Below, piece by piece: positions 20,226-56,422 of a DNA stretch of 64,000 bases (position 1 is its first letter; each line of letters opens with the position of its first letter). The notes below the pieces were generated by a model. That model searched no databases, was not told the DNA's origin, and saw only the letters and a list, made by a program, of their open reading frames with translations. Source of the stretch: Geosiphon pyriformis uo1 (taxonomy: Eukaryota; Fungi; Glomeromycota). The position numbers were made by a program, and so were the translations under genes. The DNA lies in assembly GCA_016748015.1 (NCBI GenBank), contig JAAOMT010000128.1:2669913-2733912 (forward strand). Reading direction: 5' to 3'.

Positions 20226-20335
20226 AAAAAAAATTAATTTAAGTTTAAGTTTAAAATTATATTATTTATTTTTTTATGTTATTAAATAATATTATTTTGT
20301 TTAGTAAAATTGTTTATATTTTTTATATTATACAT

Positions 20336-21861: not shown

Positions 21862-22526
21862 TTAAGCTTTGTCGAAATCGAAGTTAATTTCTTCATTGAT
21901 TTCTATATTACTATAATAATCTAATACTGTATTATTAATTTGTTGTTGTAAATTTTGAAATTGTAAATTGGTTAATTGTCCAATGCTATTAATTGTTATA
22001 AAATTCATAGTTGGATCTAATAGTACTTTGTGACAGTTTTTGAAAGCCTTAAAAATTCTGTAAACAGCTTTTATATGAAGTATATTGTTGGTTTTTCCAA
22101 TAAAACTTTCTAATTGTTGTATTGTTGTTTTGCTGAATACTTTGACTGAATCTTTTGAATATAATGTTTATATATTTAATTGTTTTCCCAATTGGTAATA
22201 ACAATAATTAATAGTGAATTTTTTTTTCAGCTGTCCAAATATACTTGGTGTTAATTCTGCTATGTTTATTTTTTCTGTTATCAATATATTGTCCAATGCT
22301 ATTCCTAAATTTTTAATGGTTTTGTCGATAAAACTGTTACTGTTTTTGGCAATAGTAGTATATGATACAAAACTAGGTTTCTCATTTATCGTAGAATTTA
22401 GTATCATTTTTTTTTATATAATATCTTGGAACTATTAATTGTAATTTCCAAATCTGAATTTGATTGTTGTAAGCTTTAACATAATTGTTGAGTTAACTTA
22501 CTAATGTTTTCTGAAATATATGTCAT
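21862..22526 (-). pseudogene. Element B ORF3, unknown accessory protein, ~220 aa
   Basis: MTYISENISKLTQQLC*SLQQSNSDLEITIN..., a frameshift near an A-run, then ORF 22168-22407 ...FTINYCYYQLGKQLNI*TLYSKDSVKVFSKTTIQQLESFIGKTNNILHIKAVYRIF...FDKA*. Confidence 0.8.
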
Positions 22527-24022: not shown

Positions 24023-27000
24023 TTATGTGTGTTTCATTCGCGACAAACAGTCAGCATTGGCATTTTTGGTACCTTCTTTGTATTTGATGATATAATTGTA
24101 TAGTGCTAATATTTGTGACCATCTGGCATATTTTCTTTTCAGCACTTTTTTGTTATTTAATCAGACCAGACCTCTATAATCTGTGGTAATATCAAAGGGT
24201 TTGTACTATAAATATGTGTCAAAGTAAACACAACTCCAGACTACTGCTAAGTATTTCAGTTTGTGTGTTGCATAGTTTTGCTCTGCCATACTGAGACTTC
24301 TACTAGTATAAGCAATTACACGTTCTCTTCCATTATTATCTTTTTGTGAAAGAATGGCTTCAAGTCTCGTTCCAAAGGCATCTGTGGCCAAAATGAATTT
24401 CTTGTTGAAATCCAAATAGATTATTATTGGTGATTCAATAAGCTTTTGCCTAAAGTACTCAAAAGCTTTTTGCTGTGTTTTGGTCCATTCGAATTTCACA
24501 TTTTTGGATAGTAGATAATTAAGAGGTTTGGTGATGTTTGAAAATTTTTCTACAAAGCAGCAGTAGTATGATGTGAGTCCTAAAAAGCTTCTAACTTCTA
24601 AAACGTTTTGAGATACTGGAAAATTTTTTACTTTGTCTATTTTTGATGGATCTGGTTTTATTCTATCTTTTCCAACTACGTGTCCTAAAAATGCTAGCTC
24701 ATTTTTTCCAAAGAAACATTTTTTTAGATTTAGTTTAAGTCTAGTGTGTTTCAATCTCTCAAAAACTTGTTGTAAATGTTGGAGATGATCTGTGAATTTT
24801 GACGAGAAAACATTTGTATTATCCAAGTAAACAACAACAAATTGCCATAGAATTCCAGAGTAAATTACGTCCATTAGTCTTTGGAATGTCACAGGAGTGT
24901 TTGTTAATTCAAATGGCATTATATTGAACTCATAATTGCCATTTTGTGTTGTAAATGCTGTTTTGTGTCTATCTTTTGGGTCCATTTCAACCTGCCAGTA
25001 TCTACTGGTCAAGTTAAGTGTAGAAAACCATTTTGCTCCTTCAAAAACGTCAAAGATTTCGTCAATTAATGGTATTGAGTATAAGTCTTTGGTTGTTTTG
25101 CTATTTAGTTTGCAATAGTTGATGCAAAATCAAATTTTTCCATTCTTTTTCCTTACTAAAACAACTGGTGAAGACCATGGGCTTATTGATGGTTGAATTA
25201 TTCCTTTTTCCAACATGCTTTGGACTTCTTCTCTGATAAAATTATGCTCCATTGGTAGAATACAGTAAGTGCATTGTTTTTCAGGTCTGGCATCCCCAGT
25301 GGAAATTTGGTGTTAAACCAAGTTGGTTTTTCCAAATTCGCCATTTCATGAAAATATATCAGAGTATTTTAAAATTAATGCTTTTAATTGTCACTGTTGG
25401 TCCAGATCCATTGTTCTAATGTTTAATTTGGCCAATTTTTCTGGCATAAATTGATAGCATTCCAATGGTTGTTGCCAATTTATTGAAGTGAGTTCACAGT
25501 AAAGGGCGATTTCTGGGAAATTTAGAATTTCTTGTGGTGTTGATGTGTTTTCTAGCTCCGTTCCAAGATATCCCATGATGGTGTTTTCTGGAATGTATAT
25601 GAACTCTTTTGTGGTATTTGTGATAAGAATTTTTATCTATTGTGTTTTGTCAGCTGGAATAAAAAGGTTAGTAAATCCTATGAGAAACTGTTGGCAAGTT
25701 TCTGGGTAGGGCTCGAATATTAGATTTATATCTTTTATTGTTCTTTTTATTTTAATTTCTGATTTTCCATAAGGCGTGAGTGTGATTGACCACTTAATTT
25801 TAATTAATTCACCTTTTTCTTCTATTGTTTCAGTGAAATTTGCTTCAATTCTTTTTTCTGTCGATCCGAAACCAAAAATTCTTTTCATTGTTTGTATCAA
25901 TTTCTCACAATTTTCCACTGGCACAAATTTCCCAATTTTTACTAATGGTAGAAAAATTGGTTGTGCAATTTTCTCCTTAGATTTGATGATATAAGATTTT
26001 TCTGAATTGTTCTGTAGCAAAACCATCAAATTTCCAGTGTATTCAAAGTCAATTACTCCTTCTTGAACACTTATTTCTTTTTTTGCGAGGCTTGATCGTA
26101 ATGCTATTTGAACCATTATTCCTAATGGAATTTCAACTGCTATTTTTAGGTCAATTTTGGTGATGCTTCTGAGTGGTAACATTGTAGATTGGTCTTCTGG
26201 ATAACATAGATCGAATCCGGCATCAGTTAGATAGGCTCTTTCGGGTATTATTCCTAAGTGTTTATTGTCATAGTATTGGATGTTGATCATCTGTTCTAGG
26301 TCAATATAAGCTACAAATTTTTCTGACTCAGGACTGTTAGGTGAGTTTTGTTGATTTATTAATTAATTTTGAGACTGCTGATTCTCAATTTCCATTTTTT
26401 TTTCTAAGTCCCTTTTGTCTTAACACTCTTCACAGCATTGATTTTGGCATGGAATAAGACAGTTTTCGCAGAGGTAAGTGTTGATTTAAGTGAGGTATTG
26501 TTCTTGCTCTTGTCGAGTGGAACATAGTTGTTGGTAGTAGTCCTGGAATTTGTCCACTGGGTCAAACATGTTGTAGCTGGCGACTTCATCGGCTACTTTG
26601 GCTGACTCTTTCCAACATCATATTTTTTTGGTGGTTCCTCTTCTTACTTTGGCCTGTGCAGTATTGTACAACTCATCCTCGTCATGTGGGTAATGCTGCA
26701 GTCTTCTTACTGCTCTATTGAACACTGCTTCAAATGACATTCTTCCTCTTACCCAGTCACAGATGAGGATTGTGTATTGGCAAGTTGCATCACATGTCCC
26801 TCCTTTGCCTGGCATGTTAATTCAGTCGCACTCTTTTGGCAATGGTTCTTTATCCCATTTTCCATGTCTTTCTGAATAACTGTATTTTTCTTTGTTACAA
26901 CAGTTACAATAGTAATGGGTGGGGTTTCTTGGGTCTTTGTCTGGTGTGCTGCATGCAGTTATGAACAAAAGTTTCTTATTGTAAACTGAGCATTCTAGCT

Positions 27001-29636: not shown

Positions 29637-30476
29637 TGTTATGGGATGGTTTTCTTGGTATATTTTAATTGTTGATCTCCTGTTTTTAATTGTAATTAGT
29701 CTTTCGTGAGTTTCTCTATTTTATGTGTTGGATATTAATGATAATGTACTGAAGGTTTTCTCTTAATGTTATGATGTAAGTCTTCTCTTTAATTCTAGTT
29801 GTCTTTATATGTTGTGTATTCCTTCCCAGAGACTAATCTGAAATCTATCCACTGTCTAAGGTCTTCTCTGAGGCTATCCTTGCAATTGCTTAATGTGTTT
29901 CTCTAATCTAGAAACACAGAATGTTAATGGTCTTTTTGCAATTTCTCTAAGTATATAATAAAGCTTTTTCAATTTAATTACTAATCACGTAAATAATCTT
30001 GATCAGGGATTATTCTTCCAAAGAGTTCAAAGATGAAATGATAGTTTCATTTGTTAGAGAGAGTATGTGAATTTTATTGTTAATCTTGTAATTGTGATGT
30101 TCATTTAATTTATTATTTTTATTAATTCTTTTTGAATAAGATTTTATTTAGATATTTGTTGCTTCAAGTTGAAGCTTGTTCAATTTTTCATTATTAAAAC
30201 TATTATATATATATATAATTATTGTTTTACAAAATAATGTCTTGTAATACTCTATTTTCATTATTTCTAAATAGTGCTTGCTGCTATTGTAAAATAGTGC
30301 TTGCTGCTTTTGTACAATAGTGCTTACTGCTATTGTAAAATAGTGCTTGCTGTTATTGCACAATAGTGCTTGCTGTTATTTGTAAATCATTTCTTTTTAT
30401 AAATTATTGCTGTGCTATTTCATGATTGGCTAATTTATATTATTTATAATTCCTATTAAATTCTTGAACTGTAACA
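29637..30476 (-). repeat. 5' LTR of B
   Basis: Direct repeat of 21003-21842. Confidence 0.95.
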
Positions 30477-30774: not shown

Positions 30775-30776
30775 TT

Positions 30777-30792
30777 TGGTGCTCCCTGTGAG
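30777..30792 (+). promoter_or_regulatory. Primer-binding site of C
   Basis: TGGTGCTCCCTGTGAG. Confidence 0.88.
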
Positions 30793-33800: not shown

Positions 33801-36800
33801 ATAATTTCTACCCTACATCCCAATGATCTACTTATCACTGCCTAAAACTGGTATGCATTAATTGTGGCAAGAAATTGTCATTAATAGGCACTTGTTGTGG
33901 CGATAATGAAGAATACACTTTGGCAACAAAATTTTACTGTTACCCATGCATCATTGAATGCTTTGGAAGGCCAAAATGGATTGGAAAATGGGACAATGAA
34001 TCATGCTTAGCTTATGAAGAAACTCTTCTGGACGAAAGAATGTGGAATGACATTTCTGGGCGAGGAGAAATGTGCGACAAGTTGTGTTAATACACAATTC
34101 TTATAAGCAATTGAGTAAGAAAAAGAACACCTATAGACACTGCCTAGAAACAAGCTGTTAAACATCTGGATAGATGTCCACATGATGACAACAAAATCTG
34201 GTAAATGGCACTCGCCAAAATCGAAAGAGCGTCACTAGAAGAAATAAAAACAATTAAAGATAACTCACCTGAATCTATAGAACTGGACTGGGACCCAGAA
34301 CCAGTCATAAATCTCTTAAATCCAGAAAAATTCTACAAACATTATCAAAAATTAGCACTCACTAGAGAGGAACAGAAGCAATGGTTGGAAAAAATCAACA
34401 CTCGACTATGTGATTATTGTTTAATTTTCTGTGACTTTCAATATTGTAATGAGTGTAATCTCATTTACAATTCACCACCATGCATGATCTATACGATCCT
34501 AGAGGAAGATGAACCAATGAGCAGCTGTGTGTCAGAATTGGAATCAATTTTCAATCCCGATTCAAACTCTGACAATGATAACAAAAATAACAGTTCTAGC
34601 TCCATTCAGAACAACAACAATTTTAACCCAGATTCAAACTCCGATTCAAACTCTAAACAATATATTGCACTGCCCAACCTCACCAAGGAACAAGAACTGA
34701 AATGGTTCAGTGATAATAATAAAGGTATCATGCCTGAATGTGCACATAATACTGATGCAGAATTTGATTTGAAATATTTAGGGAAAAATCTCATCAAATT
34801 GGAACCACATTCACGCACTTGCATTGATCTGAAAATAGTACTGGAAATTTCAGCAACAACTATGGTTCAATTAACATCCAGAAGTAGTTTAGCAAAAAAG
34901 GGAATCAACATCAGAGGAGGAATAATTGATGCAAAATATGTAAGAAATATTTTTGCTATGCTATAAAATGACTCAGAAAAAACATATACTATAGATCTAA
35001 ATAAAAAAATAGCACAGGCAATATTCCTACCTCTGGTGAAAGTAGCTCAGCTAGTGTTAGTAGGAAACAGGAAAAAATTAAGGATCACAGTTAAAGGGAT
35101 ACAGAGATTTGAATCAACAAGTAGAATAGATATATCAGTTAATATGGTGAAGGAAAAGGTTATTGACAAAGAAGAAATTATCTCAACCTGTTAAACAATT
35201 TCTATTCCACTATATGACCAGTATATGTTAGCCATAAAAAGAGAAGTAAAGAATCAAGCTCAGTTGTTTAAAGCAGAAGCCACTATTTGCGAATCAGGAG
35301 AGATTGGACTCATTAATATCTATATATCAGCCAAGAGCCTCAAAAATATAAAAATTCCCATTTACAATACAACGGGAAATGTCATCAAAATACCAAAGAG
35401 AACCATCATTAGATATTTGACTGCTAAAGTTGAGGAGCAACCACTGAACCACATTTCAAACTTTTCACAGCTTTGTAGATATGTGGATATTACATCACAG
35501 ACTATATACAAATGAAGTAAATGTTATCTGCTCTAACCAGAACAATTGGAACAAATAAATATGGGAAATCTAGACCCACTCTAACAAATGCAACTAAAGA
35601 TATTACTCAGCAATTTCAATAACATCTTTGCAAGCAAAAATGAATTTGGCTGCACCAACATCATCCAGCATTAGATCAAAACTGGAGATGCAATGCCAAT
35701 TAAACAAAAAGTGTACAGAGTACCACTAGCCAGCTATGAGATCATTTGTTAGGAAATCAATTAGATGCTTGACAATAGGCTAATTCAGCCATCAATGAGT
35801 CCATGATTGTTACTAGTGATACTAGTCTGAAAGAAAATGGAAAAGTCCAGTTCTGTGTGGATTATCGAAAACTAAATGGAGTAACCAAAAGTAATAGCTA
35901 TCCAACTCCAAAGATTCAAGAACTATTTGATGCTTTTGGAGGAAATAAATGGTTCTCAACATTAGATCTAAACAGTGGTTACTAGCAAGTAGCCATAGAT
36001 CCAGCTGACAAAAAAAAGACAGCATTTACAACAAAAAAAGAGAACTTTGAATTTAAAGTTATGCCATTTGGCTTGATGAATGCTCTAGCAACATTCCAAT
36101 GACTCATGAAAATTGTCTATACTGAATTACTATGAAAATCAGTAGTTGTATACTTAGATAACACCAATGTGTTCTCAAAAACATTCAATGATCATTTACA
36201 TCATTTCCAACAAGTGTTTGAAAGATTAAGAAGAGCCGGATTGAAACTAAATGCAACCAAATGTTTCTTTAGAAAGACTGAGCTCAAGTTTTTGGGACAT
36301 GTGGTGAGCAAAGATAGAATTAAAACAGATCCAAACAAAATTGTGATTGTAAAAAACTTTCCAGTACCAAATAATATCACAAAATTAAGAGTATTCTTGG
36401 AATTTGCTAGATACTACTGCTGCTTTATCAAAGACTTTTCTAAAATAGCTCAACCACTACATCAGCTCCAAGCAAAAAACACCAAATATGAATGAACAGA
36501 AATACAGCAAGAAGCTTTTGATACACTAAGAAGAAAGTGTATTTAAGCTCCAGTACTGATCTATCCAGATCATAGCAAATCATTTATCATTACTACTGAT
36601 GCATCAGATCAAGCATTGGAAGCAGTACTATTACAGAAAAGACCAGATGGAAGAGAATATCCAGTAGTTTATGCCAGTAGAAGCTTAAGTCCAGCTGAAA
36701 AGAACTATGGAACACCAGTATTGGAACACTTAGCAATCTATTGGGCTGTCATCAAGTGGAGAAAATACTTAAGCCAAAAGTTTGATATATACACTGATCA

Positions 36801-36984: not shown

Positions 36985-38367
36985 ATAAATATACAAAAAT
37001 ACCAACAACTCCAACATTATTTAAATACCCAACTGTTCAAGAAGAAATTATCTCAAAAAGAACAAAAGAACATAAAACAACAATCAAAATATTTTATCAA
37101 CCATCAAAACATACTTTACCAGAAGAACAGAAGAAATCCAGATCAACCAACCAGAGTAATTACAGAACCAGAGAAAGAGACAATATTATTCAACATGCAT
37201 TCAGATCCAACAGCAGGACATTTTCATAAAAAAGCAACCATAAAAAGAACTAGAAAAAAATACTATTGGCCATTAATATATCCAGACATCATTCAATATG
37301 TCCAAAATTGTGATGCTTGCCAGAAGAGAAAAGGAACAAGACCCAGAGAACCATTGAGACCAATCAAAGTGGGACAACTATTTGATCACATTGGAATTGA
37401 CTTAGTAAGACCATTAATAATCACTAGCAGAGGCAACAAATATATCACAGTAGCCATAGACTATCTCACTAAATGGCCAGAAGCAAAAGCCATTCAAAAA
37501 GCAGATGCAGAATCCATTGCCGAATTTGTTCATCAAGATTTGATTTGTTGACATAAATGTCCAAAAGAACTACTATCAGATCAAGGAACTCATTTTGTAA
37601 ACAGAACATTGACAGAATTAAGTCAAAGATTTGGGATAAAAAGACTATTATCATCATTATACCATTCACAAACCAATGGATTAATAGAAAGATTCAATAG
37701 AACACTGTGTGAAGCAATTGCTAAGATCAGTTAAGAAAACCAGGACGAATGGGATTTGGTTATATCATTAGTATTATTTGCTTATTGGACAATGAAGCAA
37801 GACACTATACAAGCAACACTATTTGAATTAGTATACAGTAGAACAACAACATTACCAATTAAGATAGAAGTTAATACATATCCAACTGAACCAATAACAG
37901 AAGCCAATTTCTAAGAAACATTGTTGAAAAGAACATATGACTTAATGAAAACACTAGAAAACAGACGATAAAAAGCAGCTGATAATATTCAAAAGTCACA
38001 AGAGAAACAAAAAGAAAGACACAATAACCAACTACCAAATAAACCAGTTGAATTCAAGATTGGAGACAAAGTACTTTTACATCATACCAAAACAGAAAAA
38101 CAATAGAGTGGAAAATTTGACCCCAAATGGGATGGACCATTTTACATAGAAGAAATTCTTGGAAATAAAGCTTATAAATTAAGATGGGACAACAAAATCT
38201 TAGTCAAAGCAGCACATGGTGATCGACTGAAACAATATCACCAGACAGTATTATCATTCACCAATAACATTTCACAACTGAGAGTACAAAGAATACTAGT
38301 CCAACCAAATAAAATTCCATGAGATCTGGAACCAATCATAGTTATTGAACCAAACACGTCAAATTGA
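36985..38367 (+). pseudogene. Element C integrase, separate ORF; start codon mutated ATG>ATA
   Basis: H..H..C..C zinc finger (37195-37551), DDE core and KWDGPFYI. 1383 nt in one frame. Confidence 0.88.
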
Positions 38368-38422
38368 ACAAACAAAAGAGTATATAAAGACACAGTACAT
38401 GTAAAAAAAGCAACCAAGAAAA

Positions 38423-39058
38423 ATGGAAATACCAAATCATATTCACATTATAGCTTAACAACTGTTTCAAGCCTTAAATCAACAACTGTTAGACATAGAA
38501 ATTATCATTAACAACCAAACAATTTGCTATCAAAACACCAAAAAAAAGACAAAAAACACACCATATTAGTGGTTACCAAAAAACAAAAAAAACTGGACAG
38601 ATAACTTAATAGAAAAAGTAAAAAACACTTTTGGAAAAATACTTGTTATGACACCAACAGAAGAACTTACAAAGAAAAATTGGAAACAATAGACAGAACA
38701 ACTTCCAATATCATACTGCTACTACTAGTTAGATTAAAAGTTGAATATTCAGGAGTTGTATATCAACAAATCTAAGAGAATATTCAACTAAGACATAATA
38801 CAACAAATTGAAAAATTCATCGGAAAGAAAACAAATTCAATACTACATGTTAAAACAATGTATTGACTACACAGCATATTTCAGAACTATTCAGAAATAC
38901 TGTTACACTCTGACATAGAAACCATAACCATTAACCAATAGAGAAGAATGAACAATACACAAGTAGAAGATGTGAAGAACAGAGTTGAACAAACAATACT
39001 TAAAAAAAAAGTATTAGAATTAATTCAAAACAAAGATTTTAATGGAGCTCAATATTAA
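38423..39058 (+). pseudogene. Element C ORF3, unknown accessory protein, 211 aa
   Basis: One frame of 636 nt from ATG to TAA, interrupted only by transition-type stops: MEIPNHIHIIA*QLFQALNQQLLDIEIIIN...LPISYCYY*LD*KLNIQELYINKSKRIFN*DIIQQIEKFIGKKTNSILHVKTMY... Confidence 0.82.
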
Positions 39059-39072
39059 AAAAGAGGAGATAA
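39057..39072 (+). promoter_or_regulatory. Polypurine tract of C
   Basis: AAAAAAGAGGAGATAA directly before the 3' LTR. Confidence 0.85.
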
Positions 39073-40936
39073 TATTACTCATAAAAAGAAAACAGATATA
39101 GAAAATAGTAGACCAATAAGTGAGTAGTAGTTAACACATGAGCATTGTTACCAGACAAAATTAGAGATATTATTTAGCATAAAATTATCTTATAATTCCT
39201 ATCATTAATTAGCATATATTATCGTTTCAAATTATCACTTATTACATTAGCAAAATATCCGAAATTATCATTTAATTAATAACCCAATTTGTACACAACA
39301 CAAATGTAACCTAATTGTGATGATCAATCATGCAATACCCCAAACTATGTAACATTCAAAAAGTTCACTGAAATAATTAATAGTTCACTGAAAAATCTAA
39401 TAGTTCGCCGAAATGTATCTTTGATTCAGCAAAATTGTAGAAAATAGCAAAGTTCAAGTTCATAGAATAGTGTTATAACAAGTTGTATAAAAGAAGAGCT
39501 TCTTTTTTCGAGAAAATGTATCTTACTTTAGATTTATTACTTAGAACCATTCCTATACACACAAAAAGAAATAAATATTAAATAATTCGAAAAACCAAAT
39601 TCTTTAAATTATTGCACTTGGAAAATCCTCAAAAACACAACTAACAGTTTGAAATTGATTAGCTACCAATTTCAGTAGACTGTTAAAACACTTCCAGGTC
39701 TGGATCCAAAATGACTTTAACAAATCAATTCCTCATTTCTTCTTTTTCTTTCCTTTTCTTTTATTTTCTTTTCTTTTATTATCATAACAGACAAGATTTC
39801 TGTAAAAGAGTTGACTTTCACAGCAAAAGTAACTACACGCAATTTAGTAAGCTTCCAAACGAGCAATTCCTGGGAAAGAGTTGACGTTTACTACAACGTA
39901 ACTATACAAAGTAACTGGCACAGAATTGGCCATTCTACTCATAAGCCCAGCAAGTTTAAATTATAGGAGATAATTTGAAGATAAATTCAGTTACTGGAGG
40001 TTCAACCACATTCAGAAAACGTGAATTCACAGCAAACAAGCATCGACAACATTTAAGAAAAGAGACCAAAAACCTCCAGTAATAGCATATTGTTCAACAA
40101 TATAGAGCAATGTTAAAAATCATGGCATATTGTTCAGCAATATGGAGTAATATCAGAAATCATGGTACATTGCTCAGCAATGTGGAGCAATGTCAGAAAT
40201 CATGGCATATTGCTCAGCAATATGGAGCAATGTCAAGAAGATATGACATATTGCTCAGCAATATGAGCATTGCTTGAGAAATTATAGCACATCATTCGAG
40301 AATATAAGTGATCTTATAGAACTCAGATTATGTATATATAGTAGTAGTGTTAGAAGTAAAAAGAGATTAAACAGTTAGAAACCTTTTACATTACCAATAT
40401 CAATAAATAATTATTCACTATCTCAATCCACTCTCTACTATCAACACTTTATGTTAATAGTAATTGCTACTTAACTCTACTGGAACAATAGCTCTTGATC
40501 ACGGCTATTGATGGATACTAACTTGCACATTGTCTTGGCTCATTTTTTTATTCTTTTTTTTTTTTATTTTTTTTATTTTCTTTGATTTTATTGTTGTATA
40601 CTAATTAATTAAGGATTAAAGCACTGAGTAATTGATGTTATGGACAGCCTAGTAAAAGACCCAGAAATAAGAGTAGAATTATATATATTAATGGTTAGCT
40701 ATCAGAAGGGCATGACTGCCAGAATAAACTGGCCATCAAGCTGAAGACAGAAATTGGGAAAACAACTCAACAACCAACTACATTACTGTTGAATCTCTGT
40801 TCATTATACAAAAGACTCCACAACAAAACCTTCAGATAAAACAATACCTTCAGATATCCCCAAGCATTTATATCAATTGAGCACCAAGTTATGGGTTTGT
40901 TATTTGCTTTGAGACCCCAAATAATCACTTGTAACA
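39073..40936 (+). repeat. 3' LTR of C, interrupted by a solo LTR; U3 array of 6 x 40 bp at ~40085-40320
   Basis: Aligns with the split 5' LTR. Confidence 0.9.
39146..40084 (+). mobile_element. Solo LTR (939 bp) of the element-D family, inserted in the 3' LTR of C
   Basis: TGTTACC...CAGTAATA ends, 4-bp TSD gcat/gcat, absent from the 5' LTR of C. Internal ~20-bp repeats agttc(a/g)c(t/c)gaaa at 39362-39413 and TATA at ~39485. Confidence 0.88.
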
Positions 40937-41890: not shown

Positions 41891-44800
41891 CTATAAATCT
41901 ATCAGAACAGAAACCATACTATTCACACCAAAAAAAAAACAGCAATGTTTACAAAAACCAAAGCAGACACCAAATGTTTCAATAATTCCAAGCAACCTAA
42001 TCACTCCAGCTGAAAACATACATGACAAATCATGAGTTACAGAATACACAGAACTATCAAGTGGAATTAAACTACCTTTTTCTATTAAAGCCCTATATTT
42101 AGCTCTAACCAACCAAATATCTGTGCAGTGAATAGCATCCAATTTTTGAACAAAATTAACAATAAACTTTCTCGTGATCTTGGCATTACCCAAAATGGAC
42201 ATAGCTTTCTAAACTCAATTACTGAACATAAAGCTTTTGCCCATGGGAGTATATAATACATTATCAGATACACACAAAAAAAACACCTGTGAAACATGAA
42301 ATGAAGATAAGCCCAATTCAGACACACAATACTACTTGGCCAGATGAGATACAAAAATGCTTTTACGGGTTTCAGAGTCAAATGTACAAACAAAAAAGTG
42401 GTCAAAACTTTCCATTTCACTACAGTGCAAACACAAAACACTTGAATAAACCTTATTATACAAATGCTTCTATACAGCAACTGATAGATGGTAGTAGAGG
42501 ACCTTTAAAAAATAAGAATGCAAACTAGCCGTAGATTTACTGATAAAGCCAGCCACCATATGAGAGTCAGAGTGCCATACCAAAGCAGTATGAGACCAAT
42601 CTACATCACCAAGTAAACTGTTATCAATAACATCAAAACCAGAACCAACTTCCTAATAAGCACAATTAATAGACCTAAAAATCTTATAAGCAAAATAATG
42701 AATGTTCCCAGACATTGCCACCCCACCAGTCCTGATAAATCTTTTCTTAACCAATACAGGAAGTGCCAAATCAGAACTCACAACCAGACTGGCTAACTTA
42801 TCAGCATGCTCATTATCTATAACACCCAAATGCTCTTTAATTTTGCACCAAAAAACATCAAGCTGCTTTCTCTTAATTAAATTAACAATACCATGTTGCT
42901 CTATCTAATATTGGTTGTGAAAGTCCAAAGACACCAAAGCTGATTCAGCTACACAAGCATTCAGAGCATCCTGACTGTCTAAATAAACTACTACTAAACT
43001 GTCAGAAAGAACACATTTCAAAGCCAAAGCAATTGCCTGCAATTCTGCCATAGTTGATAATACCAATCTACTAACCCTAGCACCAATACCCAAATCTAGA
43101 TCAGGAAAGTAAGCAGCAGTACCACACTTCATCTTACATAAACCCAAATCCTTTAACAATCCATCTGTGTAAACACTAATAACTTTTATATTTGCAGAAA
43201 AGAGACATTGACCCAATTTGAAGATCTTATTTGAGCTGCAAAAACTATAGCCTGCAACCCTTTAACATGCAAATCATTAGAAATAAAAGAATGATCCAAA
43301 AAGTCACAAGCCAAAGTCAACTAATGAGAGACAGGACCCCTTGGATTAAGTTTCTTCCAATGTTAAAAGCTCTTCCAATCGAAAACCAAACCTTCTTTTT
43401 TGGTATACAACTACTCAGCAAAGACAACCCCAAATTTTTTAAGAGAAAAAAAAACATTATAAAACAAAGAAGCTCTCAGAACTGTAAATATTGGCATTTC
43501 ACCAGAAAAGTGAAACACAGAAACAGAGAGATTGTTAAGAGACATGTCATAATCCAAAAAATTATTGACTGGACTGACATACAACTTAACTGGACAACAT
43601 AGAGGGTGAATAGACGACCAACTCAGAACTTGAAGATCCAGAGACCTATGATTGAACAAACAACCAAGAACACCACTAGTATTTAAAAAACACAGCACAG
43701 AAACCACCTTGTACTCAGTCTGCAATTGCTCAAAAAATTTCAAGTCATACAAAGATGAATAGTGAAAAGCCTCATTGGGAAAGTCTCTTAGAAGTCTAGC
43801 CTTAAGTCTTAGTCCCCTCCTAATCAATATATCTCATCTTGTATACACATTCCTAGAAATAAAGCTAAACTGAGTCCTATAACTAACAATGGATTGCAAT
43901 ACAGCTAACACTAACTAAAGAAACTGTTTGTCTAATATAGCCTTTTTCAGAACCAAATTGACAAAAAACCTGATGTCTGTATACACCTTAGCCAAACTGG
44001 GTTTGAACAAATTCTCAGATAATAAATAGATGCCAAGGTACCAATGAGACTTTTTCTTGCAAGCAACTGAAATTGGCAGACCACTAATTGACAATGACAC
44101 ATCATTAATTCTTTAATTGATAGGAATGACCACAGTTTTTTTGTTATTGATAGAAATGTTATTCACCTTAAAAAATTCACTCACTGTGTTCAAAATATGC
44201 TGAGTGGCAGCTTGACTGCTACTTACCCAAATAGTATCATCAACAAATGCATCAGCAGCCAGAAATGAAGTCAAACTGCCTTGGTTTTCTATTCTACCTG
44301 TTCTAGCAACAAATTTAGTATCAATTTGGTATCCACACAAATTTTCCTGTCTCTTAACCTCACACAAAAGGAGATCGTAAAAGATCTTCCACAGCAAAAG
44401 AGAAAAAATTTCACCCTGGTTAAGACTGTCATATACCCAGTACCTATTAGTCAGATCGAAATTAGTCATAATTCAATTAACATAATTATTGTGAACAGAA
44501 CCAAAAAATCTAATAAAATGCCTGCATATTTTGATTTAGACCAAACTATTATGCAAGTGATATCAACTCACAGAGTCATAGGCTTTACACATATCTTGCA
44601 ACACAAGCCAGAGTTTATAATCTTTCTTTAAGATGTCTTTAACAACCAAACCAATGGCAAAAATAGGAGACTGAATAGTAGTGCTCTTAAGCATGGAAAA
44701 ATTGTCTCCACAAAGAATGTTGAATAGACTGTATGCTAACAAAATTCTGATAAACAACAACTTAGAAAGAATCTTACAAGCAGTTTCAATTAAAGCAATT

Positions 44801-46551
44801 AGTCTAATATTTGTTAAAACACCCTTCCATTCATAGGGCTTAGGAATCATTGACACCTAAACTTCTTTCCAACAATGAAGAACTAACTCACATACCAAAC
44901 AAATGTTTAAAAGATCCAGAAGCAAGCTTAGCACAGATCCATCACAATGTTTCCAAAGTTCATTTGAAATGCCAAACAAGTCAGCAGCTTTACTATTTGG
45001 TAAATCCTTAATCACATGTATCAAGTTATCTAAACTGATAGTATTCATTACACCAGAAAAAGCATTATTATTGACATAATCCAATGGCAGGTATTAATGC
45101 TACCACAAATCGGGAACACTCTTCAGCATGGCTTTCTTTCTTATCCAGCCCTTTATTATACCATCCACCTTACTTTTAACTTCTACTGGGTCCAAAATTA
45201 AATCATTATCAGAAACCAAATGGTCCAATACTACTTTGCAGAATGGATGTTCTAAAACACTACAGATTGTGTGGCTTTTGTTAACCACAAAATTCTCCAT
45301 TCTTCTTTCAATAGCTGATCTAATGCCTAACTCCTTGGTTTGCAACAACTCGGCAAGCTTAAAGGCACAATAAGACCTCCTTATACCATAGAGAACAGAA
45401 TAGACATTATTCAAACTTGCACCAAAGCTCATAAAATCCCGAACCACAGAAGCCCTGTCACTATCCAGAGAAACCCAGTGTCTTAAAAGAGATTTAAACC
45501 AGCCAAAGTCCATCTCATGAAAAGTCTTAACTATTTTCAAGACCAAAATCTCCAAGTTATGCAACTTGAAAGACTCCTTGGTAAACACTTTATTATAACT
45601 CTTAAATCATTTCTTTTTAAAAGCTCCATCAGCCAAAAAAATTATTACTTTGCAAACAATATTCTACATAGCATCCAGATCAGAGAAATTCCTGGCCGAC
45701 CCAAACTCATCCAAGAACATAACAGTATTGGCTGCAGTAGCATCCTTAAATTCACCCCATTTTACTTCATCTGCATTTTTGACATCAAACTTCCAATGAT
45801 TTTTATTTATCTGCTTGCATAATAAACTCAACTGGATATCAAGCAAACCACCCAAACCCACAGAAACGGAAACAACTTTGTGATTAGTATCAAAATAGTC
45901 CTCAACACCAGCCATACTACCATCTATTACAGCATTGACCAAACTTAAAGAAATGAGAATGTAATCAAGAGCTTTAGCAACACCATAAGAATTGGTCCAA
46001 GTAAGCATCTTGACAAACAAACTTCTTCTTAAAAAATTAACTAAACTTAAATCAAAACACTTTTTGAAACTAGCACACTTTTGGGCACTGTCTTCATTGA
46101 AATCACCACTTAAAATAATAAAAAAGAATTTATTCACTGCTTTTGCAATGAAAAAGTTGATTTCACCAGCCTGAGAAAACCAAACCACTGAAGAAACACC
46201 AGCATAAAGCCCCAAAATTGACACAGATAGATTATTCTTGAAGAGTAACTTGAGGGAGAGGAGTCAACCAGAAACTTTGGAAACTTTATACATATGTCTT
46301 ATCAAAGAATTGTTTATGATAATTGCAACACCAGAACCCAAATAACCAAAGTCCAAACCAGAAGTAAAAACCCGAACACTATCAAATTTATTTATAATTC
46401 ATAGACAGATTTTACCCCTCAACTTAGTCTCGGTAACAACAAAAATCAAATTGTTCATTTTTTTATGCCAATAAATTATATCATCCTGTTTTGTAAAATT
46501 ATTTATACTTCTAACATTGCATGTGGCAATCTTTCAAACTAGACTGGTTAT
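41891..46551 (-). pseudogene. LINE 1 ORF2 (APE endonuclease, RT, RNase H)
   Basis: GDFNE and LDYIL (APE); MIPKPYEW, QGEIFSLLLW and AFVDDTIW (RT); VYTDG...AELQAIALAL...YLDSQ (RNase H). Confidence 0.88.
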
Positions 46552-48320
46552 TGAGAAAAAGGTTTGGGCAATACACCACCAGCCAAAATTGAACTATCAA
46601 ATCTTGCTGTTAGACTTAGAACTGAAGCAGAAAGTCTTTCCAATATGTTTTCCAATCTTTTTACTTCAGGAGAAGCAGAAAAATCTAAAATTGCAGCAGT
46701 TACACCACTCATGGTCTTACCAGAGCCCTCTCTTGTCACTACATCACCCATCCAATTTTGTGATGAGAAAATTACTGACAGCTAACATCCAGGGCTAAGC
46801 TGAGAAACTGCTGGCATGAATGAGTCCAACTTCTTAGCCAACTCACTAATTTGTCCCATAAGGCTGGCAAGACTGCTCTCCAAAACAACAAATCTTTTTT
46901 CAACATTACTTATATCAGGAAGAGTAGGCTTTATCTCTAAAAAGGAGCCAAAATTGACCAAAACATTTCACACAGGGAGAGGAAGAAAAAATTATCCACC
47001 AGCAATCTTTACCCAAGAAACCCCACCAAAAGCAACAAGATGAGCAATTGGAGCCAAACACTTGGCATAGATGGTTGCCAACCTGCTTTTATCTATGTTT
47101 GAGAGAGATTTGTAAAAAAGTTTTTCAGAAAAAAAATTCTCACTCACAGCACAGCCCAAAAATGTATGACTCATTTTTCTATACTTAGCACATTTAGAAA
47201 AACCCAAGTGAGACCAACACAAATTTACACTCCTTAAAACTGGAGTAGTTCTCATGACAGCATTCAAGAAATTGGCTAATTTAAAACAAACAACAGCATA
47301 TCTGGTCTGAGCATATGTTTTCTCATCCACAAAACCAATTTAATTTCAGATGTTATGAGTAGTCATTCCCATTGGTAGAATATAGAGCAGCACCCTATGT
47401 TAATCTCTTGCATTCCATAATTCCTTGTCTAGATCAGCTCTGGCCACACACACAGCATTCTTTCCAATTAGGATAGACCAACAAGCTGTGACTAAATCAG
47501 CCTGTTTACTCTTACTAAATTCAACTATAGTTTTCTGCCACAAACCCACCAACTGTATCTTGATCGACACCATTACACCAAATTTGAATAGTGCAATGCA
47601 CACAGTCTCTGTTAATGTTTCAACTGGAATTTTCTTTAATACTATAGCCCAATCTGAATGTCCAAATAATTTTTTAAGATCAGTGTTCACCAAGATCTTT
47701 GCCTCTTCAGCTTTTTTAGAAGTCTGTGCCAAACTCAATTCAGAAGTAAATGTCACTCTGATGATCTCAGCAAATTTTAAGAAAGTAGAGGCCCTCCCAA
47801 AACCATTAATTTTTGAAAACAACTTTCTGATTACTTAAAGCTTCTCTTGAGAAGATTTTCCAACCATCTTGTCTAATCCAATATCCAAAGCAAAAGATTT
47901 GTGAACAGAAATATTGACCAAGTTTTTCAAAAGTAGAAGTAATTCCAACAAAGTGTCCAAAAAAACATCATTTTCATCACTGCTTAATAAAAAATTAATC
48001 TTTCCTAATGGTTTGCTTAATGCCTTTTTGGTTTTAACTCTCGAACCTGTAGGTGTTTGATTAAAATCTTCTCCAGTAAGAGCATCATCTTCACCATAAT
48101 TGAAACTGGTCTTTTCCACCACACATTTCTCCTCCATATCAATACTGTCAGACTTAGTAGTATTACCAGTCTCTGAACCCCATGAACAACTATTTCGAAC
48201 TTTAAGACCAATATTTCTACCACCAGAACCATCCTTCAAAGCACTATCTCTCCTCTTTTTTCTTGGAAGAACAGGTCTAAAGCCAACCTTAGAACCAGAA
48301 ACTCCAGCAGTCTTTTTCAT
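46548..48320 (-). pseudogene. LINE 1 ORF1
   Basis: Fragments 47835-48320, 47400-47822, 46992-47330 and 46548-46751 are homologous to ORF1 of LINE 2; degenerate CCHC knuckle. Confidence 0.8.
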
Positions 48321-49151: not shown

Positions 49152-51098
49152 ATGATAGAACCAGTGGGCTCTTTTGCTAGTGGCTCTGAGTTGATTTTGG
49201 CTAGTTTAGGGACCCGCCAAAGTGTGAAAAGCAAGTGTGTGGATATGGTATACTCTTGAAGTGCATCCTACAAGAAGCCAAAAAAGCCTGTTGTTGGTGT
49301 TGTGGTTGACTTATCTGCTGGCCCTTTGGGCTTGAAAAATCTTGGTGGTGTTGGCATCAAGCCTGAGATATCTTGAAAAAACAAAGTTAGCAGTATTATT
49401 AGCAGTGTAAGTAATCTCTCGGACATCAAAAATATGGCGAACACAATTGCCAAGGAAACCAGTTATGCAGAATCAGGTGAAGACGATAACATGGATGAGA
49501 CAACGCCGAGAAAAATTCGCACCCAGACGTTTACGCTGGGCAACCCTCTGAAGTGGCCTTCATTTGAATGTATAAGTGATGACAATGTTGTGCTGAATCT
49601 TCCTCCTTATGTGAATATTGGGTCCAATCAGTCACTGTCACTCGGATCACGTGTCTTGAAAATACGGAACTTTAATACAACAAAATTTTTCGTGCTTGAT
49701 ATTGAGCTTTCTGCAGTGCCTGGCAAGTTAGTTAGTAATAAATTAATTTCATTAAAAAAAATCTTTTATCATGTTGATGGTTTTGGGGGAGCCTCCACTC
49801 CCTCAAAATTTCCTGGTATTATTAGATCATCTTTTATATTAGAATTTAGTTTGAATAAGGCTAGGGAAATGGCAATCTGTGAGAAAATTTTGGTTAATAA
49901 TGATGTCAAAAAAGCAAACAGCCATTCAGATTGAGAGGTGATCGTCAAGAAGATCCCAATAGATCTTTTCAGATTGACAGTGGAATCAGTTTTCTCTAAA
50001 TTTGGCAAGATTGTGTCTATCAAGATGCAGCTAATTAGTCTTTGGCAAAAGGCCCTAGTTGAATTTGAGTTGTCTGAAGTTGTCAGTTAGGTCGCTTCTA
50101 TGTGGTCTGTTTTTATGAGAAAAGATTCTGTGTGTGTGGCTTTGGCAATCAATGATAAACAAATGTGAGTATCTAGAGATCAGCATCAGACATTGCTATA
50201 TACTCTTCCAATGGGCATCACTGCCCATAATCTTTCCGATTTATTGGTATTCTATGGTGAGAAGTCTTGTTTTATTGGCCACAATTCTAGTTCATATGTT
50301 TGTGATAGGTGTGCTGTAATTTGTTTTGGTGATGAGGCATCCAAGTTGGCTGCTATTGGCACAATTCCTATTTTCAAGGGTGTAAGTTTGCGTTGGGCTG
50401 GTCTCTCTTTGGCCTGTTGTAGTCAGTGCAAACAATTTGGTCATATTTCTGTTAACTGTTTGATGGGTGGAAATTCTGGTGGTCGTGGGAGGCAGGTGGT
50501 TTCTGATCAGGATCGGGTTCATTTGGTCAGGATATATAAGAAAAAGATGGCTTCTATTGTGTGGCCAGTTTCATTTGGTGACAAGACATGGGCTCAGGTT
50601 GCTAGTGGCTCTTCTTTTCGTATGGTTCTTTTGGATACTTCTGGTGTTGGTTCAACCTCAGACATGAACTCTCTCTCAATGTCCTTTGAATCCCTCGATG
50701 TTTCTGATTTAGGCAGTTATTTGGCATCTCTGAAATGCTTCTTGGAACTTTTAACTGACCAGGTTTCTGGTATTATGAAAAAATTGAGTTTTGTTGAGTT
50801 GGTGCCCTTGGTGCCTTCTTTTTGTGTTTCCCCTTCAGATGTTTCTGTCCCTGTGGTTTCAGTTGTGAACTCAGATATGGCTCTGGATGGTAGGTTGACT
50901 TTGTTTATACCCTCTGTTTCTGGTGCTGATGTGTCTGATGCTATTTTTAGTTCGAGTGGTTCGAAGGTTCTTACCTCCAAGGTGAGTGGTCTGGAATCTA
51001 AGATGTCTGTTCTGAAAGCTTCGATTGGTTCAGTTCTGGTGAGATTGGATCTCTTGTGTTCTAGTTCTGGTTCTCATGTTCCTTCTTTATCCCAATGA
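49152..51098 (+). pseudogene. LINE 2 ORF1 (RNA-binding/gag-like, CSQCKQFGHISVNC knuckle)
   Basis: Single reading frame (ORFs 49434-49934 and 50193-51098) broken only by nonsense codons. Confidence 0.82.
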
Positions 51099-54000
51099 GC
51101 AATCTGGTTTGGAAATTTGCAATGTGCAATATTTGGGGTATCAACGTTCCTGCGAAGCAAGCAAACATTGTTTATTGGCATGTGAGTTCTGGAAATATGG
51201 TTTCTTTTGTTACTGAAACAAAGTTGAAGTCCTTTGCTGGGCCATGGATTAAGGATAAATTTGATGGAGTTCAGATTTTTACTTCTGGTTTGGATGTTGG
51301 TTATTTCAGTGCTGGTGTTGCTGTGATCATGAACAACTTTTTGGCTCGCCATGTTTCTAAGATTGAAGAGATCTCTGGTCGGGTTGTTTCTGTGTGACTT
51401 TTGTTTAAAAGCAAGCTCTCAATAACTGTGCTTGGTTTGTATGTTAGTGCTTTTTCTGGCACTTATTTTGGTCAAGCATCTGAGATTAATTTTTTCATTG
51501 CTAAGGCTGTCAATACTAGTACTTTCATTGTATTGGGTGGGGATTTTAATGAGAGCAGATCTGGAAGGAGTGCAAGTTTTAAGTTTTGCTTGGGTCTGAG
51601 TTTGGTCAATTCTTTTGCTGGCCATTATTTGGCTGGAACACCTACATAGTGCAATTCAAGAGGAGTTGAGAAGACTATTGATTACATTTTTGTTAGTGAA
51701 AACCTGTCTTCCACTGTTGCTAAACATTGGATTGGACCTGTTTCTGAATTTTTTGATATAAATCACAGTGCTGTCATAGTGTTGGTTGGCTTGGGTGAAC
51801 TTTTGAATGCTCAGTTGAATAGTTTGTGCAAACAGGCTAACAAGGATCATTGGAAGTTCAAAATTAGGGATGTGGATGTTGCTAAATGGAATAAATTTAA
51901 GGATTGTGTTTCGGATAAACTTTTGTTGATTATAGACTTTTTTTCTGAGACTAAAGCTGGTGGTAATTTAGATACTATGTGGGCGATTTTGAAGAGGGAG
52001 ATGGTTGAGTCAGCTGATGAGATGTTCGCGAGGCATTGGTTTAGTGAGTTTTAGTGCCTTAGGAATAAACATTCTTTGAAATTTTTTGGGCTCGAGCTAC
52101 TCGTTGCTAAGATTGTTAGTAAGATTGGTTCTGGTAATATGCTTGGGGTAGATTATTTTGTGAGAAAATAGTTTACTTTGGATGAGGCCAAGACTAGCAC
52201 TTTTTCTGACTTGGTCATCTTGAGTGGGGACAGTGTTGTTCTTTTCAAGCATTTGTCATCAGTTCACAAAGAATACAAAAGATCAAAAATGTTTGAGTCG
52301 AAGTTGGCAGAGGAGACTTTCATTAGGAAAGCTATAAAAAAGTACATGGAGAGCTTTGCTTCTAATAAGGGTGACATGATCTGAAGTGTTTTGGACTGGC
52401 CTTTTTGTAAGGTGGTCTTTGATCATTTGGTGATTAATGATAACTTGGTTTTGGAATCTGAGGAGATAAAGTCTAAGGTAAACGAGATCATAATAGGGTG
52501 GACGAGAGTTTGCACTATATCTTAATCATTGTTTGAATGCTGGGTTCACTAGTACATGCCATTGGATTATGTAAGGGACAATGCTTTTTCTGGTGTTATA
52601 AGAAAGATAGTTATAGAGGAGTTGCTTCTGGTGGTAGGTGGTCTGCCTGATGGTAAGGCCGCTGGCCTGTCTGGTATTCCCAATAAACTGTGGAAGCATA
52701 ACGATGAGGTGGTTCTGAGCTGTCTGTTGGTTTTGCTAAATGCTTGCTTGTCCGTTGGCAGAGTGCCTGTTTCTTAGAAAAGGGCCTGGGTGTCGATGAT
52801 TCCTAAGCCATATGATTGGGATGGTGTTCTCACAAACACTCATCTTATTGCTCTGATTGAAACTGCCAGGAAGATTCTCTCTAAGGTTCTGTCTGATCAA
52901 ATTTTTTTCGTATGTAGTAAGTTTGGTGTTCTCCATGATGACAATTTCTCTGTGTTGAAGGGCACATCTACACAATCTCTGGTGTTTGCTGTTGGGGCAG
53001 TTGTGAAGGATGCTCTTGAAAAAGATAGAGAACTTTGGCTGGTCCTGCAGAACATGTAAAAAGCATATGATTCTGTTGGGTGACATCATTTAAGGGCTAG
53101 TTTGCAGAGGATTAAAATGTGCGACAAATTCATCAGATTTTTTGATGGTATACATAAGGGTAGGTTCAACAGGATGATGACTGATTTTGGTCTTTCTGAT
53201 GAGTATTATGTTTGTGATGGTTTGGATCAGGGTGAAGTTTTCTTGCCCCTTTTGTGAAGAATTTTTTATGATTCGCTTCTGTGTGAGGTTAAAAGACATA
53301 AACAGATTTTTGGGTATTGGATAAGTTCCAAGTTTGTTTCGAAATCAGATCAAATTGAGGGCAGTGGTAGGTTGTCATTCTATTTCACAGCTGGTGCTTT
53401 TGTTGATGATACAATTTGGGTTGGGAACTGTCAAGCTGCTACTCAGAATATTTTGGACATTGCGAGTAAGTTTTTTGTTATCAATGACATTTTCATCAAC
53501 AATAAGAAGACTGTGGCCATCTCGATCAATCAAAGTGTTAAAATTGCTTCTTTGAGTATTAATGGTCTGCCTGTTTTAATAACTAAAAAGAGTGAAGCTC
53601 ATCACTATCTAGGTATTTTTTTGTCCACTGAGAGGCTTTCGAAGCCGAGTGTGGCCAAGGTGCATTCTGATGTTTGTTTCTTTGCTAATGTGGTTCTCAG
53701 GAAGGCTATCATTGATAAACAGTTCTCGTATCTGGTATCGGCTGTCTTGCAGCCTATTGTTAGCTATCACACTTAGTTCAGCTTTGTTTCATCAAATATG
53801 TATAACAAATGGGATGTGATGTTGAAGAAAGGCCTTAAGTCTAAAGCTGGTTTGTCCCGTGATTTCCCCAATAAGGCTCTGTGTCATCCATCTTTATATG
53901 GTCTGAAGTCTTTTGAGCAGGTGCAGTCTAAAGGGAAGTTGGCTGCCTTGATTTTATTTTCCAACTCTTCTGGTATTCTTGGCCAGTTGTTTGAGCACAG

Positions 54001-55786
54001 GTTTCTCGATTTGCAGATTCTAGAGTGGTCTCCTTTGAATCCTTTGCAGTTTCTTGTTAGGTTGTGTGTTAGCTCCATGAATAATTTTCTGGCAGGCGTG
54101 ATTAAGATTTTTCTGTGCAATGAGCTGTCTTTGTCGAATAGATTGCCCAATGCTTTCCATAGTCCTGGTAATTTTCATGTATCCTCTATTCTGAGGAGTT
54201 CTTTGCATTTCAATTCAGTCTATTCATTGAAGCGTTTTGGTGTGGCTTTTAGTAATAGATTGTTTGACAAGAAGGGGCATATTATGAGTTGGGCAACTTT
54301 TCGACGTTAGAAGAGGCTGGGGCCAAGGGGTCCTGTTCCTTACTGGTTTATGGTTGTGTTTGATTTTCTTTGTGGTATTGAAGCCTTGCTGGCTGGTTCT
54401 GTGAAGTCTACTTGTCTTTCTGGAGTGAGCATTTTGGATTCTAAGGAGTTTTCTGTAGTTGTTAGTAAGTTGCATAAGGTCTTATTTAACTTGTTTGAGG
54501 TTTTTATGGATGACTCATTAAAAAATTTTGGTAGTGTTGATGTTGCCAGTAGTGTGGTGGCCTTTTTTTCTGCTATTGATATGAGTATTGGCATTAGGGT
54601 TGATGGGCTGTTGTCTTCTACTATGGCCAAACTGCAAGTCATTGCTTTGTCTTTGGAGTGTGTTTCGTTTTCTTGTACAGTGATCATGTATGCTGACAGC
54701 CAAGTGGCTATTGATGCATGCATTTCTGAGATGTCATTGTCTGTGCCTGATTTCTGCTCCTTTTGTTGGTTGGAGAAATGCTGGATTTTTGATTTGGTTC
54801 ACGAAAAGGATCTTTCTGTATATTGGGTTAAGATCAAAGGACATTCTGGGATTGTTGGTAATATTAGGGCTAATACTGCTGCTGAGAATGCTGTTTTTTC
54901 TCGTTTATCTTTGCCTATCAGTGTCCAGGAGTGCTTTTTGGTTGCTAAAAATATACTGGTCTCTGGCAATACTTATTATTTTGTTCGGGATTTGTATAAA
55001 TTTGTTTGCCATGCATGGTGGGAGGCGGGATCTGGCCGTGATGTGATTCCTGGTGTGCTGATTGAGGCCATGGATTGGAATGCTACTGTTAGGGTGTGGC
55101 ATTCCAATTCACATATGCTTGCTGGTTTTATTAGTCAGAAGTCTTTTTGTCTTCGCATATATCTGATGAAAACTGTGCACTGACAGCTTCCTGTGCCAGT
55201 TAGGAAATGTTTGTATGATAAATTGTACCCTGGTGTGCTGTGCTTATTGTGTCGTGAAGTGAAATTACCAGACCATGTTTTTATGTGTTTTCATAATGTG
55301 GAGGTTCACAAAGAGGTTTTGGTCACAGTGTCTTTGGACTGGTTATCCATGGTCAGTCCTCGTGGCTCATTATCCTCTGCTGTTTTACAATCTCTTGATT
55401 GGTGTTCTTTGGACATTAGTTTGTATTCGGTTCTGTGTAAAGGGTTTGTGTTGAGGGAGTGGTGTGAAGAGGTGGTGGAAATTTTGGACAGTAAGAAGGA
55501 GGCTGTCAGTGCTGTGATTGGTTTTGTTGAGTGTTTGGTTGAGCTACATCACTCTAAAGCCTGGTTGGTGAGGTCAGCATTTAGGGTGAGAATAGAAAAG
55601 GCTGGTTTGGTTAAGGATAACAGTTTGTTTTCTGGTTTGTTTCATTGCTTGGGTTCTTTGTTGCCTGATAAGGTGGTAAGAATGCTTGGCATTGCTGGCT
55701 CTTTTGCTGTTAATTTTGGCCATTGCAGGTTTTACCTTTTTTTCTCTGGTCTGGATGGTAGTCTTAGTGTTGATATAGGTGTGTAG
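51095..55786 (+). pseudogene. LINE 2 ORF2 (APE, RT, RNase H, C-terminal CCHC)
   Basis: Ten ORF fragments all in one frame. Motifs ETKL, GGDFNE, AFVDDTIW, KIKGHSGIVGN and CLLCREVKLPDHVFMC. Confidence 0.9.
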
Positions 55787-56422
55787 TGTTGCCTTGTTTG
55801 GCCTGAGTGGCTAGCTACATGTAGAAAGTGCATGAACTGCATTTAGTTTAAGCTTCTTAGTTTGGTTCTATATATTAGATAACAGTTGGGTTTCACTTAT
55901 TAAACATATTAATAAAAAAAAATATTTATATTAAAGCTAAAAAAACTGATAAAATAATTTATTAATTTGTTAATATTAATGTATTTTGCTTTAAATATAT
56001 TTATATTAAAATTTAAGAACATTTTATTTTTATTACCAATATAATGATTAATATTACAAGCCAAAAACTTTTTATTATATTATTTATATTTGTTTTTATA
56101 TTTTAGAACTGATTTAATTTATACAAAAATAATTTAAACTTTAAATTTACTTTATTACTTAAGTATTTAATATTATTAATTAATATTTTATGTTTTTAAA
56201 CAAAACTATTGCTAATAAAATTAGAAACAATATTTTTAGTTAATTTTTTTTAATTATAGAATTATTAGTAAAGATTATTAAATTCATAATAAAAGAGTTT
56301 GTTTTTTGAGAAATAATAATAGATATAACAAAAAAAAACAAAAAACAAAAAAACTTTTTTACAAAATTTAGGCTTTTTAAAAAATTTAAGATGTACAAAA
56401 AAAAAGGTTAAAATATTTTTAC

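Follow-up and report, generated by a model that had tools for sequence, protein, structure and literature searches.

A post-integrase reading frame and the adjoining U3 repeat arrays in Gypsy elements of Geosiphon pyriformis: a possible regulatory cassette

Introduction

Does a protein encoded directly before the 3' LTR of a Gypsy element act on the repeat array in the U3 of that element, or do the two simply lie side by side? Elements often carry extra open reading frames after pol and before the 3' LTR, and two reports treat what these do as an open question (PMC7264820, PMC11963269). LTRs cover 41.2% of G. pyriformis, according to PMC11952901. In this study, we analysed a stretch of 64,000 nucleotides of G. 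pyriformis uo1 (contig JAAOMT010000128.1, positions 2,669,913 to 2,733,912 of the forward strand), which we call the window and whose own numbering is used throughout. An initial annotation had flagged positions 38423-40320 and proposed that a third reading frame, ORF3, regulates its element through a family-specific U3 array with which it co-evolves. In retroelement replication, the U3 of the 3' LTR is the template for the U3s of both progeny LTRs, so ORF3, the polypurine tract (PPT) and U3 would be inherited together.

Results

The window contains nested, decayed Ty3/Gypsy elements in which gag, protease, dUTPase, RT, RNase H and integrase domains were found. Domain order, LTRs, primer binding sites (PBS), PPTs and 4-bp target site duplications place them in Ty3/Gypsy. 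The Pfam matches of element B follow the Ty3/Gypsy order, with dUTPase between protease and RT; a dUTPase domain was seen at this position in A, B and C (3637-4641, 25637-26362 and 34205-34966). Element C lies on the plus strand, and both its LTRs are interrupted: element B sits in the 5' LTR, and a solo LTR of family D (39146-40084, plus strand; target duplication GCAT), foreign to the C module, sits in the 3' LTR. Read in order, the flagged span comprises ORF3 (38423-39058), the PPT, the first 73 bp of U3, the inserted D-family LTR and the 40-bp array of C. ORF3 and the C array are present as annotated, but the span is not a single module, since 935 bp of it are the inserted solo LTR. Contigs of run X1 connect 39139-39145 directly to the C array and skip the solo LTR; because they bridge the insertion, an uninterrupted form of the C 3' LTR exists.

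On the plus strand, the PPT of C (39058-39072) is followed by the start of the 3' LTR U3 (39073-39145, CCAAT box at 39113), and the TATA box, R and U5 of this LTR, homologous to those of A, lie at 40333-40936 with the element C target duplication ACAT. The annotated kinship of A and C was borne out. The PBSs of C and A agree at all 17 nt (30775-30791, plus strand, and 8051-8067, minus strand, respectively), the TATA-R-U5 alignment showed homology, and the integrase tails match in length. A self-priming PBS was rejected, as no full complement was found in the window LTRs, and an Rfam search of 4 loci matched no family. The window also holds two non-LTR-like elements that are related to each other, have RNase H and face opposite ways (41900-47800, minus; 49400-55800, plus), a host gene with a Mediator Med25 VWA domain (57474-58166, E 2e-26), and a 760-bp direct repeat (78.5%; 13228-13988 and 19492-20233) in the strongly AT-rich surroundings of element D.

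All 43 classified differences between the two LTRs of B (21003-21842 versus 29637-30476) were transitions, and the CpG observed/expected ratio was 0.04-0.29 in the elements versus 0.76 in the gene region at the window end. These values fit a decay of the elements driven by methylation. RIP was rejected because the transitions affect C in every context, with a loss of CpG, and are not CpA-specific.

ORF3 had been annotated between integrase and PPT in four elements. This holds for A, B and C, but D keeps only a C-terminal remnant. ORF3 of C (38423-39058, plus strand) has 211 codons in one frame with 8 in-frame stops, and an intact homolog, P0006, is 77% identical to it over the full length. ORF3 of B (21862-22526, minus strand) carries a frameshift near the N-terminus, and relatives in the P0004 cluster are 64-69% identical to it. 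The A copy is cut by the window edge, which leaves its N-terminal two thirds (3-413, minus strand); as the 3' LTR of A lies outside the window, its ORF3-U3 link rests on the 5' LTR. The D remnant (10737-10940, minus strand) was found with a profile free of D (iE 4e-5) and by tblastn (E 2e-4). All named homologs of the window ORF3s were G. pyriformis hypothetical proteins (2, 5 and 28 matches), and ORF3 as a query found no relative among metagenome contigs. The intact copies are P0006 and five further 259-aa models in the 8-member P0004 cluster, the tails of the latter being LTR-derived.

We examined 37 G. pyriformis gene models, 17 B-like and 20 C-like. Fifteen of the 17 B-like models extend into B-type LTR sequence and reach R, not the array. 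Among the 20 C-like models, two enter A-type U5 and one, P0039, enters the C-type array. P0039 is an independent gene model that joins integrase, C-type ORF3 and C-type array (array match E 4e-8). The gene models are consistent with ORF3 and U3 forming a block to which U5 is not tied, P0039 being the one informative case. In the R region of the B LTR (21119-21274), 15 G. pyriformis models join B-like ORF3 from several different points, and these joins may be prediction artefacts or real splicing. A TATA-like motif lies 42 nt upstream of the C ORF3 ATG (38381-38388, plus strand). Such a motif occurs 45-103 nt upstream of ORF3 in C, A and B, versus 0.014-0.08 per 100 bp in internal regions; this region is homologous between A and C. 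The motif is a possible, weak candidate for an internal promoter.

The U3 arrays of the window were then compared. The A 5' LTR has 40-bp units made of 8-9-bp subunits (8708-8840, minus strand; 2.4-2.8 copies). The B 3' LTR has 23-bp units (21628-21753, minus strand; 5.2-5.5 copies), with a 5' LTR copy at 30262-30386. The 40-bp units of C, with an 8-bp-arm palindrome, are found in the 3' LTR (40085-40290, plus strand) and, as an uninterrupted copy, in the 5' LTR (20405-20629, plus strand), in 4.6-5.6 copies. The 20-bp array of family D is present within the solo LTR (39362-39414, plus strand; 2.6 copies) and, decayed, in the LTR of element D itself (10402-10473, minus strand; 3.5 copies). None of the 6 array pairs aligned above unit-shuffled controls, which confirms that the arrays are family-distinct. 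The U3s of A and C had been called unrelated; this is true of the arrays, but the whole U3s weakly share a 5' module (3/2000 shuffles as high). A and B have a common 5' module with 18-bp identity around the CCAAT box (0/2000 shuffles as high), and CCAAT lies at +41 to +48 in A, B and C. Palindromic units exceeded shuffles in C, as annotated, and also in A, but were borderline in B and absent in D. A core motif common to all four arrays was ruled out, AG(A/C)AAT being found in A and C only. The U3s of A, B, C and D had no 9-bp period (period-9 score -0.05 to 0.00), and all four are A-rich, as in ORF3-less U3s.

ORF3 had been described as fast-evolving, and a dN/dS near 1 had been named as counting against the proposal. 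We found that dN/dS was 0.27 for the window C-A pair despite decay and 0.03-0.22 in 6 soil ORF3 pairs, like that of integrase. Codon position 2 was the least diverged, in the order 2 < 1 < 3 in all three window ORF3 pairs. These results indicate that ORF3 is a real gene under purifying selection, and the description as fast-evolving is not supported.

The identity of the A and C ORF3s, put at about 40% by eye, was measured as 39-44%. The annotated drop in A/C similarity is real, but it begins at about 38339, 28 bases before the integrase stop and not after it. The change-point interval from 38339 to the integrase stop (38339-38367, plus strand) is the putative recombination boundary. Between A and C there were 28 transversions in 1340 sites up to about 38339 (2%) versus 93 in 474 sites beyond it (20%). 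The corrected third-position transversion distance between A and C was 0.45 in ORF3, 0.04 in integrase, and 0.09 in RT and gag; between C and B, it rose only two- to three-fold in ORF3. ORF3 dS exceeded the dS of the adjacent integrase in 6/6 pairs with a defined dS (7 examined; three share members). From these differences, we infer that an older ancestry of the ORF3 block, acquired by recombination near the integrase end, fits better than rapid adaptive change. The apparent ORF3-U3 exchange in A/C and the link in P0039 support the claim of inheritance as a block, but co-evolution of ORF3 with the array was not significant (see below). ORF3 appears to travel with U3 as a block.

To place ORF3 among other elements, soil metagenomes were queried with a short integrase motif, which gave at least 120 related loci. 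An ORF of about 145 aa directly follows integrase in 31 of the 120 loci listed, and the profile was built from 14 of these 31. In many listed relatives, integrase is followed at once by the PPT without an ORF between. At E<=0.001 the ORF3 family comprised 441 clusters; 10 were looked up and 4 were named, from Gigaspora margarita, Rhizophagus irregularis, Cetraspora pellucida and Glomus cerebriforme. In the R. irregularis member, ORF3 is fused to integrase in the gene model. The core net charge was positive in 17/17 soil ORF3 proteins. The integrase protein and motif found no relative among viral contigs. Judged by its sequences, ORF3 is an accessory family of AM-fungal Gypsy elements, hitherto undescribed within the literature searched. 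No account of the family or the array was found in the freely accessible article texts that this search covered; the AM-fungal TE library accompanying PMC11952901 could already catalogue the family.

Other genes occupy the post-integrase slot in related Gypsy elements. A NUDIX hydrolase is found there in L024 (1945-2886, E 1e-10) and an Mrr-like nuclease domain in L052 (822-1460, E 5e-8); by eye, L066 and L041 also have a NUDIX or Mrr-like gene in this slot. L059 has a 20-bp tandem array of 5.5 copies right after the integrase stop, in the place of the PPT.

In a quick integrase tree of 98 rows, the ORF3 carriers fell in one clade of 36 rows, 23 with ORF3 and 13 unknown. The window elements grouped with L035 and branched apart from the soil ORF3 carriers; a single clade of soil carriers and window elements was not rejected (p-AU 0.305, 47 rows after thinning). 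L035, the sister of the window elements, has a 217-aa ORF in the post-integrase slot and a 9-bp array, and this ORF matched neither of the two ORF3 profiles.

Scorable U3s were available for 14 ORF3+ and 30 ORF3-less loci of the 120 listed. The other 76 were left out because they were too short, had no LTR start found or carried another ORF, and the U3 starts of 6 ORF3-less loci were placed by hand. A 9-bp period was present in 13/14 ORF3+ U3s versus 0/30 ORF3-less U3s. T exceeded A on the sense strand in 14/14 versus 0/30, and E-box-like sites occurred in 0/14 versus 12/30. The autocorrelation of ORF3+ U3s peaked at 9, 18 and 27 only, so that the period is strictly 9, not 3. With this period, and with no consistent start, strand or frame, a peptide-coding role of the 9-bp arrays was rejected. 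A tandem array of some kind was also found in 20/30 ORF3-less U3s; the presence of a U3 array does not by itself indicate ORF3. Since the carriers form one integrase clade, the co-occurrence of ORF3 and the 9-bp array represents one, at most two, independent events.

We also examined whether ORF3 and array co-evolve by family. The Mantel rho between ORF3 and U3 was 0.45 (p 0.018, 12 elements) and fell to 0.20 (p 0.19, 8 elements) after near-copy removal, so that co-evolution was not significant in the thinned set; that between integrase and U3 went from 0.13 to 0.01 after thinning. The correlation with U3 k-mer distance was higher for ORF3 than for integrase, but not significant after thinning. 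The soil arrays remain alike while their ORF3s are about 30-40% identical.

Several short motifs were noted in these elements. Some 20-25 nt before the PPT, a short motif beginning with GG was found repeatedly, whether or not the element has ORF3 (L002, L023, L038, L071, L035, L008 and L030; window about 39044-39052); it is possibly a cis-signal. The shared 'GAQ' tail ahead of the PPT was not accepted as a sign of protein homology, since ORF3-less elements have a similar DNA motif in front of their PPT. A GCGCAG/GCACAGTA-type motif, likely a host-factor site, was present in 12/14 ORF3+ and 18/30 ORF3-less soil U3s, and its strict form was absent from the four window U3s. Some 9-bp units in the U3s of L008 and L019 resemble the 9-base VANC21 motif reported in PMC5735166, probably by chance in AT-rich DNA.

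The relation of the window ORF3s to the soil family was assessed with profiles. The soil profile ranked P0006 and then the window B fragment as the top two among 399 background ORFs and 1000 shuffles. With a 131-sequence profile, hhalign gave P 0.006; the B-types led (hmmsearch E 0.04-0.06) and the C-types sank into the shuffles. Position and motif order agree between the two groups, with an insertion of about 15 residues in the window type. The window ORF3s are therefore probably homologous to the soil family of about 145 aa. Their arrays have longer units, palindromic in A and C, and are not of the 9-bp T-rich type.

Window-type ORF3 had no match above cut-off in Pfam or PHROGs, and a recurring Pox_D5 match (E 0.12-2.3) was dismissed as noise. 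The soil family also had no Pfam match (12 soil and 50 deeper members). Its structure model was all-helical (pLDDT 88.5, pTM 0.83). Foldseek against PDB and BFVD gave no match at E<=0.001, and there was no sequence match in PDB; the best VIA Z was 5.8, to an importin repeat (rmsd 4.5, 88 aligned). This absence of a fold match does not show a new fold. The model of window-type ORF3 was of low confidence (pLDDT 45.5), and its fold search was uninformative. Window-type ORF3 is basic and has no transmembrane-like stretch, the highest 19-residue hydropathy being 0.44 in P0006 and 1.05 in P0004 (residues 1-199). ORF3 showed no membrane anchor and no env family match, which argues against an env-like reading.

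Discussion

Our leading reading, which we hold tentatively, is that ORF3 is a U3-binding regulator in an exchangeable ORF3-PPT-U3 cassette. A small, basic, predicted-helical ORF3 protein, expressed from an internal TATA, would bind the repeat array in the U3 of its own element. It would recognise this array family-specifically and would switch on or de-silence its own LTR promoter. Recombination near the integrase end would swap the whole ORF3-U3 block between families and thereby produce the deep A/C split. The window lineage would then have changed both the protein and the type of site. A fuller version appears doubtful to us, in which an AM-fungal Gypsy lineage encodes a sequence-specific transcription or anti-silencing factor of an unseen all-helical fold, its U3 repeats replace host-factor sites and its cassette is swapped by recombination. 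If true, that factor and cassette would give a fungal retrotransposon a regulatory module like those of complex retroviruses.

Close behind the U3-binding regulator ranks a possible passive linkage through adjacency and copying as one block, in which ORF3 acts elsewhere (in the particle, nuclear import or integration, or on a host protein) and the arrays are host-factor enhancers or nucleosome-excluding DNA. It would account for the arrays in most ORF3-less U3s (20/30), for the host-type CCAAT module common to A, B and C, and for window arrays that are unlike the 9-bp type, and it agrees with the confinement of the ORF3-array association to one clade. The Podospora element crapaud, according to PMC10787394, also diversifies its U3 without a third ORF. 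However, adjacency leaves unexplained why a strict 9-bp array is kept across ORF3s that are about 30-40% identical, and why E-box-like sites are missing from ORF3+ U3s (0/14 versus 12/30).

ORF3 could also bind the repeats as RNA, the U3 of the 3' LTR being transcribed; a U-rich 9-nt array at the 3' end of the genomic or the ORF3 RNA would then serve export, stability or translation control in a Rev- or RegA-like manner. The strand bias of the soil arrays, T-rich on the sense strand in 14/14, suits such binding, but the window arrays are A-rich and palindromic, and the arrays lie directly upstream of the TATA box. The Atlas feature comparison gave weak matches (0.91-0.93, 127-156 shared features) with the coat protein of a closterovirus and the translation repressor of a phage, which point the same way yet fall within chance by the calibration of the tool. 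We regard RNA binding as unlikely. Least probable in our view is an interchangeable cargo slot after integrase for anti-defence or helper genes, with ORF3 acting in trans on silencing without a specific site. The NUDIX hydrolase of L024 and the Mrr-like nuclease domain of L052 occupy just this position, but the restriction of the 9-bp array to ORF3 carriers would be unaccounted for (the U3s of the NUDIX and Mrr elements were not scorable).

The ORF3 family makes the function of extra ORFs testable: its proteins are short and intact, elements occur naturally both with the gene and without it, and the 9-bp array is a candidate site that goes with the gene. Should ORF3 bind its array, retrotransposons would have a counterpart of VANC or Tas. 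Such binding could also help account for the expansion of LTRs in a methylated genome, and it would assign a function to a large family of orphan proteins in AM fungi.

The elements resemble Arabidopsis VANDAL/VANC in having an element-encoded accessory protein and non-coding tandem repeats that differ between related families, as described in PMC5735166. VANDALs, however, are DNA transposons, and VANC has DUF1985 and DUF287 and shown binding and demethylation (same source). ORF3 has 145-211 aa; Pfam found neither VANC domain in 10 Geosiphon-type, 12 soil and 50 deeper members. The host background is similarly methylated, CG methylation of TEs in Rhizophagus being described in 10.1101/2021.03.30.436303. 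The plant Retand elements (PMC11963269, PMC7264820) are Gypsy elements in which an additional ORF, TRP28, follows pol and precedes the 3' LTR, with family-specific arrays nearby; a DNA-binding regulatory role of this ORF is proposed there, unproven. The Retand ORF is antisense and its arrays are internal, whereas ORF3 is sense with arrays in U3, and no match of TRP28 to ORF3 was found. Podospora crapaud offers fungal LTR subfamilies that differ in U3 upstream of TATA, with R-U5 conserved and recombination proposed, but it is depicted with gag and pol ORFs only (PMC10787394).

Foamy virus Tas/Bel1 is likewise encoded 3' of the enzyme genes and adjoins the 3' LTR. Tas is reported to bind the LTR and an internal promoter, and ORF3 has an upstream TATA-like motif. 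Foamy viruses are retroviruses with env, however, and ORF3 showed no sequence or fold link to Tas, its own internal promoter being putative. HTLV Tax is also an element-encoded activator that acts at the 21-bp repeats in U3, and it works through host CREB. If the regulator model is right, ORF3 would work like VANC or Tas while being a member of neither.
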